Shown in pieces: positions 6,477-35,406 of a DNA stretch of 39,015 nt. The position numbers and the translations under genes were made by a program. Position 1 is the stretch's first letter; every line of letters starts with the position of its first letter. The notes below the pieces were generated by a model. It searched no databases and was not told the origin of the DNA. It saw nothing but the letters and a program-made list of their open reading frames with translations. Source of the DNA: Candidatus Aenigmatarchaeota archaeon (GTDB taxonomy: Archaea; Aenigmatarchaeota; Aenigmatarchaeia; GW2011-AR5); contig JAGVVX010000007.1 of NCBI GenBank assembly GCA_018304565.1, forward strand, positions 1 through 39,015. The letters run 5' to 3'.

Positions 6477-7723
6477 ATGTTTATTTCCCTTAGCAGTTTC
6501 AGGTCATTTTTACAGTAGAAATTTCTGACGTCATTTATGCCATGCTTCAGCGCGATTGTTCTTTCAAGACCTAATCCCCACGCCAAGACTGGAACATCTA
6601 TCCCCAGAGGTTGTGTAACTTCAGGCCTGAATATACCTGATCCGCCCAGTTCTATCCACTCTTTTTTCTCTTCAAAGTACACTTCCGGTTCTGCGGACAT
6701 TTCAGTGTAAGGGAAGTATGCCGGTCTGAATCTTATTTTTTTGAACCCCATGCGTGTATAGAACTCCTTTAGATACCCAAGCAAATCACGAAAAGTAACA
6801 TTCTCATCGACAACAATACCTTCTACTTGTGTGAATTCAGGCAGATGCTTGTAATCCAGTGTCTCATTCCTGAAAACTCTGCCTATGCAGAAAACTTTTG
6901 CAGGTGGTTTTAACTTACTTAGTTCTCTAACAGAAACTGCTGTCGCATGGGTACGCATTACCGCTTTCTTCGCTACTTCCCTGTTCCATTTATACCCCCA
7001 GCCAGACGAGCCTGTATTACCGCCCTTTTCATGCGCTTCTCTGACCTCATTCACAACGTTTTCTGCCGGTAATTTGCAGGATTCCGGGGTTTTCATATAA
7101 AATGTATCTGCCATTTCGCGTGCAGGATGATCTTGCGGCTGATAAAGCGCGTCGAAATTCCAGAAGCTTGATTCCAGCAAAGGTCCCCTGGCTTCCTTGA
7201 AACCAAGATCAAAGAATATGTTCCTTATCTTCTGTATATAGAAAGAAAGCAAGTGTGTTTTACCCGGATAGATTTTAGTGCCCGCGAGTTCGACATTATA
7301 AGGCTTCAGTTTTACTTGTTTCCAATATTTAGTTTTTATTAAATCTTCAGTGAGGTTTGCAACTTCTTGGCCTGCGAGTTTCTCAGCTTTCTTTACAGCC
7401 GTTTCTCTCTGTTTTTCTATGAGTTTTCTTTGTACTAGTACATCAAGCAAACGGTTTTCTACATGATCCCCGCCTGCAAGTTTCTTTAACGCTTCGTACT
7501 CCGGTATATTTTTCGGATTTCTGACAAGCGCAAGCTTGTTGTTTTCTATTTTAATCCAGCCATGTTTTTTCGCCCATTGCAAAGCTATGGAGAAGTTTTC
7601 TACCTTTTCCTTTGCTTCAGTGAAATCTACAGGCCCGGACATAAGCAATTCAATTAAACGCATTTCAGGCAGTCCATACTTGAGATAATTCCTTCCTTCA
7701 TCAGTCAGTGTATATTCTTGCAT
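6470..7723 (-). CDS. pheS: Phenylalanyl-tRNA synthetase alpha subunit
   Basis: 417 aa. Class II core with motif 2/3-like segments (FRNETLDYKHLPEFTQVEG; GLGLERT). Directly upstream of pheT. Confidence 0.9.
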   Translation of the reverse strand: MQEYTLTDEGRNYLKYGLPEMRLIELLMSGPVDFTEAKEKVENFSIALQWAKKHGWIKIENNKLALVRNPKNIPEYEALKKLAGGDHVENRLLDVLVQRKLIEKQRETAVKKAEKLAGQEVANLTEDLIKTKYWKQVKLKPYNVELAGTKIYPGKTHLLSFYIQKIRNIFFDLGFKEARGPLLESSFWNFDALYQPQDHPAREMADTFYMKTPESCKLPAENVVNEVREAHEKGGNTGSSGWGYKWNREVAKKAVMRTHATAVSVRELSKLKPPAKVFCIGRVFRNETLDYKHLPEFTQVEGIVVDENVTFRDLLGYLKEFYTRMGFKKIRFRPAYFPYTEMSAEPEVYFEEKKEWIELGGSGIFRPEVTQPLGIDVPVLAWGLGLERTIALKHGINDVRNFYCKNDLKLLREINMW

Positions 7724-7780
7724 GATATCAATCTTGTTTATTCATATTTTAAAAGTAAAGAAAAAAGCATATTTATACGA

Positions 7781-7903
7781 GGAATACCACCTGTCTTTAG
7801 GCGGCGGTATTATTATTCGTGGTATTCCGGTATAAAAGAATCCACATGTGTTATTAGTGGTATTTCACAGAAATACCACCATCTTCAGGCCGTGGATTCT
7901 TTT
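7781..7903. promoter_or_regulatory. Palindromic module pair in the pheS/glyS divergent intergenic region (R1 copy 7781-7833, R2 copy 7834-7903)
   Basis: R1: GGAATACCAC-N28-GTGGTATTCC followed by GGTAT. R2: nested AAAAGAATCCAC...GTGGTATTTC-ACA-GAAATACCAC...GTGGATTCTTTT. Read on the minus strand, R1 is followed by TCGTATAAATAT (TATA-like) about 45 nt before the pheS ATG. Confidence 0.6.
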
Positions 7904-7930
7904 TATAAAACTTCTTGGGAAAGTTAGTTC

Positions 7931-10535: not shown

Positions 10536-10643
10536 ACTCAGGATACCACCTATCTTTAGATGCTGGAGGAAACCATTAAACCATCAGTAATTACAAGTGG
10601 TTTCCTGGTATCACAACCATCGTTTGAAAACGATGGTTGTGAT
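10536..10643 (-). promoter_or_regulatory. Upstream cassette A (inverted copy of cassette B at 35305-35406), directly abutting the CBS/HPF-like gene start
   Basis: Read toward the gene it has three parts. First, the 16-bp palindrome ATCACAACCATCGTTT/AAACGATGGTTGTGAT plus ACCAGGAAACCAC. Then a ~35-nt variable AT-rich (TATA-like) spacer. Then ATCTAAAGATAGGTGGTATCCTGAGT-ATG. The proximal 26 nt is identical to cassette B, and the distal ~47 nt is near-identical. Confidence 0.7.
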
Positions 10644-10709
10644 GTCAATCATCGTAGCAGATGTATTTCCTCTCTCAGATATAAATAAATTAGTTAGATA
10701 TGAGCTAAA

Positions 10710-11713: not shown

Positions 11714-12487
11714 TTATTCCTTGAGATATTTGCTAAACCACACGTTCATTTCCTTCAAAATCATATTGAGATCCTGTATTTTGTCGCCTATAGAGTGGTC
11801 TGCCCCCTTGATTACAATTAACTTTTTTTGTGATTTGATATTTCTGTAGTACAGTTGTGAATGAGTAACTGGCACAACATCATCTTTATCGCCATGTATG
11901 ACAAGAACAGGACATTTTATTTTCTTTGATAGTCTGCCCATATCATATTTCTGCCTGTCAGTAATGAAATTGTAATTAAGCGGCTTCTTTTTCCTTTTCC
12001 AGCCTTCAGCCCTTACAGCATAATATCTAAAACCAGTTTCTTTCCAACTTTTCATTGCTTCTTTATCACGCATTATTTCCGTGTCGTCTAATCTGAAAGG
12101 TGCTGCAATTGGAACAGCAGCATCTATCTTGTTCAGTGCCGCATATATCATTAGTACATTTCCACCAAGGCTGGTGCCTGCCATACCTATACCCATGGAC
12201 AGCTTCTTCTTTTTCAGAAATTCAACTGCTGCTCTGGTGTCGTCTAGACATTTCGTGACAGTGAAATCTTTGAAATCGCCTTGGCTTTCTCCACAACCAG
12301 AAAAATCAAATCGCAAGGCGACAAAGCCTTTTTTGCTCAAGAACTCGCACCATTCTTCCTTTTTCACTTTACTGCTTGTAAATCCATGACATACGATTAC
12401 AGCCGGCGCCGGCACCTTCTGAGGCAGGTGCAAAATGCCGCAAAGCCTTTCTTTGTGCTTATTCTTGAAGAAAACTTTTTTCTGCAT
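11714..12487 (-). CDS. Alpha/beta hydrolase (dienelactone hydrolase/S9-like), paralog of 37418..38188
   Basis: Nucleophile elbow GTSLGG, HGDKDDVVP acid region, GADH histidine. Start moved to the internal ATG (MQKKVFF), because a TATA-like GTATAAGCAT lies right at the track start and the paralog starts MQKVQF. Confidence 0.8.
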   Translation of the reverse strand: MQKKVFFKNKHKERLCGILHLPQKVPAPAVIVCHGFTSSKVKKEEWCEFLSKKGFVALRFDFSGCGESQGDFKDFTVTKCLDDTRAAVEFLKKKKLSMGIGMAGTSLGGNVLMIYAALNKIDAAVPIAAPFRLDDTEIMRDKEAMKSWKETGFRYYAVRAEGWKRKKKPLNYNFITDRQKYDMGRLSKKIKCPVLVIHGDKDDVVPVTHSQLYYRNIKSQKKLIVIKGADHSIGDKIQDLNMILKEMNVWFSKYLKE

Positions 12488-12566
12488 AAAATCGCCCGGT
12501 TGCCTGTGATTTGTAACTTTGTACTGCAGCTGGGTAGTTCTTGTATCCATAATTATGCTTATACAA

Positions 12567-12704
12567 GGAATACCACCAGCCTTTAGACGGTGATATTATT
12601 AGTGGTATTCCGGTATGCTCAGAAAGCAAAGCTTTCTGGCATGCCAAAATTGCTCTGCAATTTTGAGCATAAGAGGATCCACAAATAAGATTTGTGGATC
12701 CTCT
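12567..12704. promoter_or_regulatory. Palindromic module array in the hydrolase/trmY divergent intergenic region
   Basis: R1 copy at 12567-12616 (GGAATACCAC-N25-GTGGTATTCC-GGTAT, ~85% identical to 7781-7833). Hairpin ATGCTCAGAAAGC-AAA-GCTTTCTGGCAT at 12615-12642. Hairpin CAAAATTGC-TCT-GCAATTTTG at 12645-12665. 16-bp perfect palindrome AAGAGGATCCACAAAT-AAG-ATTTGTGGATCCTCTT at 12670-12704. Confidence 0.65.
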
Positions 12705-12732
12705 TTATAAGCATCTGCGTTATTTTTTAATT

Positions 12733-13332
12733 ATGAGAGAGTTCGTCATGCGTGCGAGGAAGGCAAAGACAAGCCCCGACATAAACCTGGATGAACTGCC
12801 AAAACAAGGAAAGCTTGATTCTGTTTGTGCAACTATAGCAAACGCGCTGTGGATATCTGGCGACGTGCGCAAGGATACAATAATTCATGTTGTTTTGGAA
12901 GGGCCAGCCAATGGACCGAAGGTAGTGAGTTTTTTCGGTAATGAAATAAAGGGCCTGCGCCACGACGAGAGATCGATAGCGTCATATATATCAGAAGCCC
13001 TGAAGAAAGGCGCTTGGCTGAAATTAAACGAAGAGGCAAATGTAAGGTCAGGAATAACTGTGGCAAAGAAAAGTTTTGAAAAGCTCATCTGGGAAAAGAA
13101 AAGCAAAAAGATTTTTGTCTTGGATAAAGATGGAAAGGATATAAGAAAGATGGATTTTCCAGAAGACTTTGTGATCATCTTCGGCTCGGCAGAAGGGCTG
13201 CCGCCGAAGGCAGGGAATTTTTTGAAGGAATTAAAGGCAGAAAAGACAAGCCTTGGGCCGCAAATGCTGTTTGCTGCACACTGCCCCGTAATAGTTCACA
13301 ACGACCTTGACAGAAGGAACCCATCCGTATGA
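12733..13332 (+). CDS. trmY: tRNA (pseudouridine54-N1)-methyltransferase TrmY-like (SPOUT, DUF358 family)
   Basis: N-terminal MREFVMRARKAKTSPDINLDELP..GKLDSVC pattern, LGP....AAHC....H..LD C-terminus, ~200 aa. Start moved to the internal ATG downstream of the palindrome. Confidence 0.75.
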   Translation: MREFVMRARKAKTSPDINLDELPKQGKLDSVCATIANALWISGDVRKDTIIHVVLEGPANGPKVVSFFGNEIKGLRHDERSIASYISEALKKGAWLKLNEEANVRSGITVAKKSFEKLIWEKKSKKIFVLDKDGKDIRKMDFPEDFVIIFGSAEGLPPKAGNFLKELKAEKTSLGPQMLFAAHCPVIVHNDLDRRNPSV

Positions 13333-15032: not shown

Positions 15033-15072
15033 GTGCTAAAGAAGTATGGCATCTGCCGGAGTTCTACTTTTT

Positions 15073-25796: not shown

Positions 25797-26207
25797 TTAG
25801 GCGTGCCTTGCTATTTTTTGTTTCGCCAGGCTCGAAAGTATCACGGCATTGACGCGTTTTTCGAGCTTCATTAGCCTTTCGTCCATCTTTTTATCTGCGT
25901 CAGAAGTGTTTTCCGGAATTTCTGTTTGTTTGCCGCTTTCCTCTGATGCCGCGATTTCAATCCTGCTTACGAAGTCATTGACCTTCACAATAAGCATGTT
26001 GACGTTCTCTGCAAGGTCTGAAACCCTGCTTATCATCTCGGAATTGACCTTTACGATGTCCTCAACCAGCTCCTGGTTGGACTTTATTATCTCAAGAACT
26101 TCCCTTATAGTTTCATGAGAAATAGTCCTTTTTTCAACTACTTCCATCTTCCTTTCCAGGCGCCTTATTGGGCTCAAGGGAACAAGTTCGTACTCTTCTT
26201 CGTCCAT
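25797..26207 (-). CDS. Coiled-coil protein of unknown function, first gene of the pilus-like operon
   Basis: 136 aa, E/K/V-rich heptad-like sequence. No family recognised. Confidence 0.5.
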   Translation of the reverse strand: MDEEEYELVPLSPIRRLERKMEVVEKRTISHETIREVLEIIKSNQELVEDIVKVNSEMISRVSDLAENVNMLIVKVNDFVSRIEIAASEESGKQTEIPENTSDADKKMDERLMKLEKRVNAVILSSLAKQKIARHA

Positions 26208-26215
26208 GACAAATC

Positions 26216-26296
26216 CCTTTCTTTTCTAAAAGAAAGGCCTTTGTATGCTCAAAGAACCAAAGGTTCTTTGGCATCTCAGAAACCTTTGGTTTCTGA
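26216..26296. repeat. Three tandem perfect hairpins immediately upstream of the pilus-operon start codon
   Basis: CCTTTCTTTT-CT-AAAAGAAAGG (26216-26237). ATGC(T)CAAAGAACC-AAA-GGTTCTTTGGCAT (26245-26274). TCAGAAACC-TTT-GGTTTCTGA (26276-26296). Confidence 0.7.
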
Positions 26297-26445
26297 AGAT
26301 TTCCCAAAGAAAATTCAAAGACCTTCCATTTTTTCTTGATATCTTAACTTAATTATTATAATCTCAGACGGTATATAAAGATTGTCAAAATTGTATAAAA
26401 TCAAAGAAATTGACTTTTTATTTTCTTTTGCTTTTAGTAAAAGAC

Positions 26446-29033: not shown

Positions 29034-29201
29034 CTCAAATTCCTCCTCTACAAGTCATTTTCTACATCTTGCACAAACTGTGCATGGAAGTATACGACCT
29101 AAAAGCTTAAAAATGTTACTTTTCCGCAAGTTTTAAGAGTGTAGGAACCATTCTACAAGCATGGCAAGCCACATGGAGACGGGACGAAATATACAGCCGC
29201 C

Positions 29202-29438
29202 TTGAATGCAGTCAGAGGTCAGTCCATGCTTGGATTGGTAACAGGCATCATTTCTCTAGAAGAGTATCAGGCGTTCGTTAGGCTGAGAGGCGATGCGAGA
29301 ACCGTGTCAAACGGCAGAGAGGTTCCTGTCTTGCCGTCAGAATGCGATGTTGCAACTACACGCAGAGTTGTCGGGAGGCTCATAGATACTTATGGATTAC
29401 AGGTTCCGGAAGGCGAGCTGGTTCTGAAACAGCTATAA
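29202..29438 (+). CDS. Hypothetical small protein (78 aa)
   Basis: ORF only, GC-richer than its surroundings. No motif recognised. Confidence 0.3.
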   Translation: MNAVRGQSMLGLVTGIISLEEYQAFVRLRGDARTVSNGREVPVLPSECDVATTRRVVGRLIDTYGLQVPEGELVLKQL

Positions 29439-29439
29439 T

Positions 29440-30330
29440 TTACCAGCCTTTGACGGCCCTGATTATGTCTCTTTTTGTCATGCTCTTTATTTCCCTTTCA
29501 TCGACCACCGGCAGCTCTATGTCGACTTTTTTCTTTGTTATCACCAGCACCGGCTTCTCGACGATCTCTGAAAACTTTATCAAGTAGTCTTCATTCTTCT
29601 CTATCTGTCTTGGGTTCTCCTCTGCGTCAGAGAAAACAAGGAATTTTTGCGTCTTTGCTATTATGTTAAATGGCGCTTGATGGACTAAGTCCGTGTCAAA
29701 ACCCATTCTTTGCAGGTCTTGTGAAATATCCCGTTCAAATCTTGTCAAAGGGCTGTTTTTTTCTTCTGGAAACTCAGTTTTCCAGAAGCTCATTGGGCTT
29801 GTTATCTTTCCTATCAGCCTCTCCAGCCTCTTGGCTGTATCCAAGTGCAGCAGCATCTTCTTCTTTTCATGTTCGTAAACGCTCTTTTTGGTGATCTTGA
29901 CCTTCTTGGCAAGCTGCGACTGGCTAAGACCTAGTTGCTTCCTACCTTCTCTTAGTTTTTCTGAGTCCACTTCCGCAAATAATCCGCCCTTAAACCTGTA
30001 TATTAGCGGCCAGTTGTCACGCACAAGTATGTTCTCAAGGGTCTTTGGCGTGAACGTTGGTATGTCAAATCTGTCGTAGACTATATCGTCGTAAAGGTTC
30101 TCCTTCCTTGTGTGCAGCCCTACAACGGCGGGAGACGCAAACAAGCTGCAGGCAAGTGTCTTCATGTTTGCAGCCTGCTCTTTCTGGAGCGAGTCAACGT
30201 TCTCAAGGACCTTAAGCAGCAGTATTTCAGACCTCTTGGCTATTATGTCAAAGCAGCCCCTGTACTCCGAGTAATTGTAGTCCGCTTTCTCAAGTATGCC
30301 TTCAACATCGTGCTTGAGCATAGTAATCAT
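29440..30330 (-). CDS. Archaeal putative transcriptional regulator with central XRE-type HTH (COG1395-like)
   Basis: 296 aa. HTH segment LGLSQSQLAKKVKITKKSVYEHE flanked by conserved N- and C-terminal domains typical of this archaeal family. Confidence 0.65.
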   Translation of the reverse strand: MITMLKHDVEGILEKADYNYSEYRGCFDIIAKRSEILLLKVLENVDSLQKEQAANMKTLACSLFASPAVVGLHTRKENLYDDIVYDRFDIPTFTPKTLENILVRDNWPLIYRFKGGLFAEVDSEKLREGRKQLGLSQSQLAKKVKITKKSVYEHEKKKMLLHLDTAKRLERLIGKITSPMSFWKTEFPEEKNSPLTRFERDISQDLQRMGFDTDLVHQAPFNIIAKTQKFLVFSDAEENPRQIEKNEDYLIKFSEIVEKPVLVITKKKVDIELPVVDEREIKSMTKRDIIRAVKGW

Positions 30331-35304: not shown

Positions 35305-35406
35305 ATCAACAACCATCGTCTGAAAACGATGGTTGTGATACCAGGAAACCACAGTTATATTTGTGACTTACTGGTTCCATATCTAAAGATAGGTGGTATC
35401 CTGAGT
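35305..35406 (+). promoter_or_regulatory. Upstream cassette B (inverted copy of cassette A at 10536-10643), abutting the IPK start codon
   Basis: ATCA(A)CAACCATCG...CGATGGTTGTGAT palindrome plus ACCAGGAAACCAC. Then a TATA-like GTTATATTTG. Then ATCTAAAGATAGGTGGTATCCTGAGT-ATG. Confidence 0.7.

Follow-up and report, generated by a model that had tools for sequence, protein, structure and literature searches.

The REP, REPIN and BIME elements of bacteria are imperfect palindromes of 20–40 nt that occur in high copy number, and the replicative unit of REPINs is an inverted doublet, which is found along with singlets, clusters and some copies within genes (PMC3116915, PMC3733652). In IS200/IS605 elements and PATEs, mobility proceeds via hairpins of ~20–25 nt at the ends of the element, which are recognised as structures and bound by enzymes of the IS200/Y1 type (PMC6006769), and excision is precise; a survey of complete genomes detected only the IS200 subclass of these enzymes in Archaea (PMC6006769). 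Prokaryotic MITEs, such as Correia and the Stowaway-like elements with a TA duplication, are non-coding, carry inverted repeats at their termini and duplicate 2 bp of the target, are moved by functions supplied in trans and insert close to promoters, and the Rickettsia palindromic elements (RPEs) enter genes in frame at high frequency (PMC10969869). Likenesses to each of these systems are found in the archaeal hairpin modules described here, and no description of this module family was found in the literature on hairpin repeats of DPANN or of archaea in general.

The stretch of DNA analysed, hereafter the window, comprises 39,015 nt and corresponds to contig C61 of an assembly (G000; 811 kb, 64 contigs, 44% GC) that carries archaeal marks, namely an intron-bearing tRNA and a thermosome gene, and whose nearest relatives are groundwater MAGs of Candidatus Aenigmatarchaeota. 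The DPANN archaea, to which this lineage belongs, have some of the smallest cellular genomes. A sister genome of the same genus (G001), which is collinear with the window at 88–97% identity, was taken whole and aligned to G000 for the comparison of insertions and deletions, and a third species of the genus (G002) was used as an outgroup at the second of the two sites considered below. The hairpins of the window very probably represent a REPIN- or MITE-like family of very short palindromic mobile modules belonging to one order of Aenigmatarchaeota.

A preliminary description of the window had reported two hairpins at unrelated loci that share their flanks and differ in their stems, and a re-reading of the letters of the window reproduced both strings exactly, ATGCTCA-GAAAGC-AAA-GCTTTC-TGGCAT at 12615–12642 (site 1) and ATGCTCA-AAGAACC-AAA-GGTTCTT-TGGCAT at 26245–26274 (site 2). 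The pattern ATGCTCA-N10–30-TGGCAT has three matches in the window against 0.01 expected, a number that was reached in none of 100 shuffled sequences, and the sharing of flanks is far beyond chance; the third match, which had been missed, is module B (Table 1). The helix is longer than first described, since a 4-bp outer helix (ATGC/GCAT) is followed by one bulged T and then by a stem of 8–9 bp, which starts with CA, ends with TG and encloses a loop of 3 nt. Compared with shuffled sequences, the site-1 and site-2 regions fold with z-scores of −10.7 and −7.7, respectively. Each copy is indeed followed by a perfect hairpin, as had been noticed, but this follower is not unrelated to it: it is the second member of an inverted pair of modules, and the two hairpins, far from marking unrelated loci, are the outer halves of 54-nt doublets bounded by a duplicated AT.

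Table 1. Positions of the modules, doublets, host repeats and duplicated sequences in the window.
Feature	Position	Strand	Sequence and context
Module A (first hairpin), outer left half of the site-1 doublet	12615–12642	+	AT-GC, bulged T, CAGAAAGC-AAA-GCTTTCTG, GC-AT; model R1, 33.1 bits
Module B, right half of the site-1 doublet	12641–12670	-	Same flanks on the minus strand, ATGCTCAAAATTGC-AGA-GCAATTTTGGCAT; overlaps module A by the terminal AT common to both; 47.2 bits
Site-1 inverted doublet, 54 nt (26 + 28)	12617–12670	.	Nested after GGT-AT in the host element; ends AT
Site-1 host element, hairpin-rich, 141 nt	12564–12704	.	Three copies in the genome; missing from the orthologous spacer of G001
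Duplicated TTATA, left copy	12559–12563	.	Single copy in G001: GTGC-TTATA-AGCATC
Duplicated TTATA, right copy	12705–12709	.	Belongs to TTATAA
Host element, left hairpin	12567–12611	.	GGAATACCAC...GTGGTATTCC, core CCACCAGCCTTTAGACGGTG
Host element, right hairpin	12671–12705	.	Perfect 16-bp stem
Module C (second hairpin)	26245–26274	+	AT-GC, bulged T, CAAAGAACC-AAA-GGTTCTTTG, GC-AT; 50.1 bits
Module D, partner of C	26273–26300	-	AT-CT-CAGAAACC-TTT-GGTTTCTG, bulged A, AG-AT; on the minus strand ATCT, bulged T, then CAGAAACC
Site-2 doublet insertion, 54 nt (28 + 26)	26247–26300	.	G001 and G002 read CTTTGT-AT-TTCCC there
Older ~95-nt repeat cassette, proximal part	26208–26244	-	Separates the promoter of gene 25797–26207 from its ATG (26207)
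~95-nt repeat cassette, distal part	26301–26330	-	TTCCCAAAGAAAATTCAAAGACCTTCC
Sibling of the site-1 host element without doublet	7778–7902	.	Bracketed by TTATA at 7773–7777 and 7903–7907

Perfect hairpins with a stem of at least 8 bp and a loop of 3–7 nt number 453 in the genome against 39–64 in shuffled sequences, and many of them stand in tandem arrays. A search with a strict grammar (AT-NN, an optional 1-nt bulge, a perfect stem of at least 7 bp, a loop of 3–7 nt and NN-AT) retrieved 89 modules from the genome and 0–2 from shuffled sequences, and a relaxed grammar retrieved ~170 copies in each of G000 and G001 against 40. A module measures ~27 nt (26–30) and consists of AT, a 2-bp outer helix, the bulged T, the stem, a 3-nt loop, the mirror half and a second AT, the terminal AT being common to neighbouring modules; the ends (AT-GC, AT-CT, AT-TC and AT-CC) are all paired, leaving the bulged T as the single base without a partner. 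The four main outer-helix classes obtained with the strict grammar are ATTC (36), ATCT (30), ATCC (11) and ATGC (7), and the flanks that had been described as identical therefore represent a minority class. Modules were found in spacers, in coding genes and within other repeats. The loops of otherwise identical modules also occur as reverse-complement pairs (AAA/TTT, AAG/CTT and GAA/TTC) with the bulge in the same orientation, for example at 12645–12665 of the window and at 7251–7271 of contig C51 of G000, along with copies in other genomes, and it looks as if the loop alone is able to flip.

Within the 371 genomes of the class, the pattern ATGCTCARA-N10–18-TYTGGCAT identified 89 copies in 29 genomes, namely the window's genome, its sister and 27 others, nearly all of them in the window's order, and the reversed control pattern gave one match in the same 371 genomes; for almost all copies, the module family is thus restricted to one order of Aenigmatarchaeota. 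The covariation claimed from the two initial hairpins extends to this larger set, which comprises ~30 stem types: 78 of the 89 copies pair perfectly and 8 more have one mispair, and when the variable part was shuffled, 3.4% paired perfectly. Among 23 distinct 30-mers, 98% of the cells pair against 83% in shuffled alignments, and double-sided changes number 43 against 11.7 expected (0/500 shuffles for both measures); controls slid along the sequence pair at 30–46%, and each of the five apical pairs is represented by 3–4 pair types. The outer helix covaries as well, as seen in the ATGT/ACAT of the C51 copy. The preliminary description had named a lack of further copies and of covariation in a larger alignment as grounds for its refutation, and the opposite was thus observed. 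A covariance model built from these copies recovered the three copies of the window and ~60 more in G001, and the covariance-model search returned 67 matches at E ≤ 1 in 958 kb.

At site 2, the window holds 54 bases that are missing from G001 and correspond to two modules, each ending in AT, and the surrounding ~230 bases contain only three differences between the two genomes. The site is also empty in G002, and in both relatives the flanks are nearly the same as in the window and AT occurs once. Because both G001 and the third species are empty, the site-2 doublet was gained on the lineage leading to the window, and site 2 is the only one at which an outgroup fixes the direction of gain or loss. 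Each of the three species of the genus carries the ~95-nt cassette that hosts this doublet. At site 1, the window has 146 extra bases relative to G001, which comprise the 141-nt host element and a second TTATA. In G002, G005 and G014, synteny is no longer conserved upstream of the adjacent methyltransferase gene, so that the direction of change at this site rests on the TTATA duplication. The doublet-free sibling of the host element in the window reads GGTAT followed directly by AAAAGAATCCAC, a second doublet-free sibling, on contig C29 of G000, reads CCTGTAT followed by AAACAAATCCAC, and a filled copy on C51 reads CCTGTAT, doublet and AAACAAATCCAC. Since siblings without the doublet share the same flanks, the site-1 doublet was inserted into the host element, in which it is nested and with which it is now carried along, and composite copies of host element and doublet are present on C1 and C51 and on contig C3 of G001. 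These comparisons establish recent insertion at both loci.

Both copies sit between divergently transcribed genes. When the site-1 element is removed, the divergent start codons are only 37 nt apart, and its arrival would have split this 37-nt divergent promoter region and cut off the hydrolase gene (11714–12550) from its former upstream sequence. The right-hand TTATAA is located 23–28 nt upstream of the ATG (12733) of an RNA methyltransferase gene, whose Pfam match begins at residue 1, and is likely to be the TATA box of this gene; as TTATAA is kept at the spacing of the methyltransferase gene, that promoter was probably preserved. The site-2 doublet probably lies in the 5′ leader of the gene at 25797–26207, because its cassette is positioned between the likely TATA box and the ATG, and in more distant orthologues of this gene the TATA box is found ~25 nt from the ATG and the cassette is missing. 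The copies at both loci are most likely passengers.

The preliminary description had taken the covariation as a sign of selection on structure, in the form of an RNA element or of a site for a cruciform or a protein. Host cis-acting RNA structures whose fold is under selection at these loci, such as leader hairpins or signals for stability or processing, would account for pairing that covaries and would suit the site-2 copy, which probably is transcribed, given its position between a likely TATA box and a start codon; moreover, bacterial REPs often work as RNA elements (PMC3733652). This reading is nevertheless improbable, since both copies lie in 54-nt insertions that are missing at the same positions from the closest relatives, in which the genes are otherwise 89–97% identical. 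A location between divergent genes is also unexpected for host RNA structures, the two-fold symmetry of the doublet causes both strands to fold alike, and the same modules occur in frame inside coding genes. A search of the whole window against Rfam 15 at the gathering threshold returned only two tRNAs, and over 12400–12800 at E ≤ 10 nothing relevant was obtained, the best sub-threshold match having E = 0.14. Finally, orthologous hairpins lack clear maintenance in place: in 90 orthologous hairpins of G000 and G001, substitution amounts to 3.7% in stems, compared with 5.5% in the 15-nt flanks and 6.8% in loops, with 49 one-sided changes and 2 compensated ones, in a comparison that is biased because the hairpins were picked as perfect in G000, which masks changes on the G000 lineage. 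Allowing for this bias, the stem rate would be about that of neutral decay, and the stems are not clearly better kept than the flanks. Selection in place by compensatory change between orthologues, with 2 compensated against 49 single changes, was therefore rejected, and the near-neutral decay of stems suggests that pairing matters for the making of new copies and not for the keeping of old ones.

The spread of a mobile family, in contrast to local maintenance, is reflected in the insertions and deletions that distinguish G000 from G001. Among those involving hairpins, ten have a length of 54 nt and five a length of 108 nt, and a further four are single-module changes of 27/28 nt, all of them located inside arrays; a 108-nt array is a 54-nt doublet within the central AT of another doublet. 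In these alignments, the doublet emerges as the unit of gain and loss. When 39 distinct ATGC-class copies from many genomes were oriented by their bulged T, a perfect partner hairpin was found directly on the 3′ side in 29 and on the 5′ side in only 2; with the partner on the 3′ side, the bulged-T ends lie on the outside of the doublet and serve as imperfect terminal inverted repeats, which at site 2 are 13 nt each and read ATGCTCAAAGAACC and ATCTTCAGAAACC inwards. Of the 39 copies, 33 have a pyrimidine immediately before the AT of the junction. Among 37 polymorphic hairpin inserts, no more than 10 have an exact AT...AT boundary and the rest show 0–3 nt of other overlap, and AT...AT was accordingly rejected as a universal rule and is regarded as a tendency. 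A fixed GTAT target was likewise set aside: it holds for the three ATGC-class doublets in G000, and across genomes the sequence is a pyrimidine followed by AT. A 2-bp duplication giving AT...AT and an insertion 3′ of a fixed tetra- or pentanucleotide would have the same appearance in sequence and cannot be told apart.

Local replication errors, that is, template switching, slippage between units or gene conversion between arms, could in principle produce such changes without transposition. Slippage is plausible for the 27/28-nt indels inside arrays, and the existence of reverse-complementary loops, AAA and TTT, in modules of one orientation would fit such events. However, identical 54-nt doublets recur with clean junctions at many unlinked and unrelated sites, and the same doublet types are shared across different genera and families, so that this explanation is very unlikely. 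Least probable of all is that the hairpins are operators or cruciforms through which a dimeric host DNA-binding protein controls the divergent genes on either side: the palindromes do have a conserved outer half-site (ATGCTCA/TGAGCAT) and do lie in divergent promoter regions, but a sequence-specific operator would keep the bases of the inner stem and not their pairing alone, ~170 modules per genome are scattered across spacers, coding genes and other repeats, and presence or absence differs between sister genomes.

For the preferred reading, that of a mobile module family, candidates for the moving enzyme were sought in G000. Three genes for Y1 (HUH) transposases were identified, at C26 20719–21078, C60 18033–18455 and C16 17753–18214, all of which pass the IS200 model NF033573 with 80–99 bits; against the RAYT model NF047646 (cut-off 80), two of them scored 20 and 53 bits and the third gave no match. 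The Y1 genes of G001 are fragments at contig ends, and no Y1 match was obtained in G014 (97% complete), G005 or G006, all of which are incomplete genomes that carry modules. Only hairpins of the CCACCG type, and not CARA-type modules, flank the Y1 genes here and in relatives, and the Y1 genes were rejected as centres of module clusters. A screen for multi-copy open reading frames recovered nucleotidyltransferases, sugar-nucleotide transferases and a LAGLIDADG protein, with no evident transposase among them. An intact IS200-like element of ~595 nt is located at C26:20602–21196 and is missing from G001; a deletion derivative of 153 nt, whose ends are those of the intact element, is polymorphic in G001. 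The C26 copy, the only full copy of this IS, is inserted after TTGAAA and ends in TTGACA, and is not positioned after AT. The core of the left hairpin of the site-1 host element, CCACCAGCCTTTAGACGGTG, closely matches the left-end hairpin of the C26 IS, and the 141-nt host element is plausibly a non-autonomous derivative of it. The ends of the 54-nt doublets share no sequence with those of the resident IS, and any link between Y1 enzymes and the doublets is circumstantial, by analogy with the IS200/IS605 systems.

The moving unit would be an inverted pair of modules, 54 nt in length, with the bulged-T ends facing outward, which would insert beside an AT, usually preceded by a pyrimidine or by GT, and leave AT on both sides. 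Its targets would include the central AT of other doublets, giving rise to 108-nt arrays, as well as other repeat elements, spacers and, in frame, genes. The ATGCTCA...TGGCAT signature would then correspond to the AT junction and the conserved 'foot' (AT-GC, bulged T, CARA) of one subfamily, the foot being the recognised end, and covariation would arise because the upper stem is free in sequence as long as pairing holds. Recognition of the hairpin with its foot and bulge may be performed by a structure-specific enzyme, probably on single-stranded DNA, as in the IS200/IS605 and REP/RAYT systems. The constraint on flanks and stem is most likely better explained by the ability of the element to spread than by a role in the host. 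A more specific proposal, which is put forward only tentatively, is that the modules constitute an archaeal hairpin-transposition system without RAYT, in which the two-fold-symmetric 54-nt hairpin pair is the complete substrate, the mover is perhaps not one of the resident IS200 transposases and the targets are short AT sites including the centre of the element itself. If this were true, the 54-nt doublet would be among the smallest mobile DNA units known, and AT targeting would build arrays, gene leaders and peptides of 18 or 36 residues in housekeeping proteins of genome-reduced DPANN archaea.

Despite these likenesses, the modules differ from each of the described systems. The unpaired GTAG or CGTC tag of REPs (PMC3733652) is absent from them, their ends being a paired AT-NN, and the halves of the doublet have unlike stems, so that no long hairpin of the REPIN kind is formed; furthermore, the host is an archaeon whose genome lacks RAYT and whose Y1 proteins score as IS200, and the two copies lie between divergent genes. 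The resemblance to IS200/IS605 elements includes the Y1 genes in the genome and the host-element left hairpin described above, but with only 3 nt between the foot of the module and the junction, guide sequences could not adopt their usual geometry, the two end hairpins of the doublet face opposite ways, and the doublet junction is AT...AT as opposed to the TTGAAA/TTGACA of the resident IS. In comparison with MITEs, with which it has inverted repeats and a 2-bp duplication in common, the doublet is much smaller, each of its terminal repeats is half a hairpin, and AT rather than TA is duplicated. RPEs, which the family resembles through sibling copies inserted in frame in housekeeping genes, are bacterial elements of ~150 bp with no sequence kinship to the modules, and the two copies with which this analysis began are both intergenic. 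REP and REPIN elements with RAYT have been described for bacteria, and an archaeal counterpart without RAYT would widen the class and raise the question of the enzyme. Small as DPANN genomes are, this one appears to carry selfish hairpin modules in the hundreds; their movement continues between sister species, where they split promoters, provide genes with leaders and invade coding sequences. The modules mimic structured RNAs and operator palindromes and break assemblies, and their recognition avoids false calls of non-coding RNAs and regulators in such genomes.

Several further observations were made on hairpins and insertions elsewhere in these genomes. Sibling doublets of 54 or 108 nt are located in frame in real genes and lengthen the encoded proteins by 18 or 36 residues of the type LGRSEASPRSQKAALFE; because the unit lengths are multiples of 27, the reading frame is kept. 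Such sites are G000:C6:8565–8618, C34 2595–4877, C45 5448–6869 and C15 4420–5250, and genes with in-frame doublets encode an MFS-like transporter, a methionyl-tRNA synthetase, the linker of an E2 acyltransferase and a DNA-alkylation-repair-like protein; the C6 insertion is missing from G001. Just downstream of the thermosome gene, the window holds ~320 nt (29121–29440) where G001 has only 19 nt; this insert does not resemble the hairpin modules and has no Rfam match at the gathering threshold. Conversely, a 37-nt segment of the window (15036–15072) corresponds to ~600 nt in G001, a block of the size of an open reading frame. The hairpin at 35305–35335 (CAACAACCATC...GATGGTTGT) has a loop of 10 nt that holds 42 extra bases in G001, and one pair of its stem differs between the two genomes with compensation, from G-C to T-A. 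At 10561–10656, a hairpin element (ACTCAGGATACCACC...) is located beside a start codon, and its inner part is wholly different in G001, with both ends common to the two genomes.
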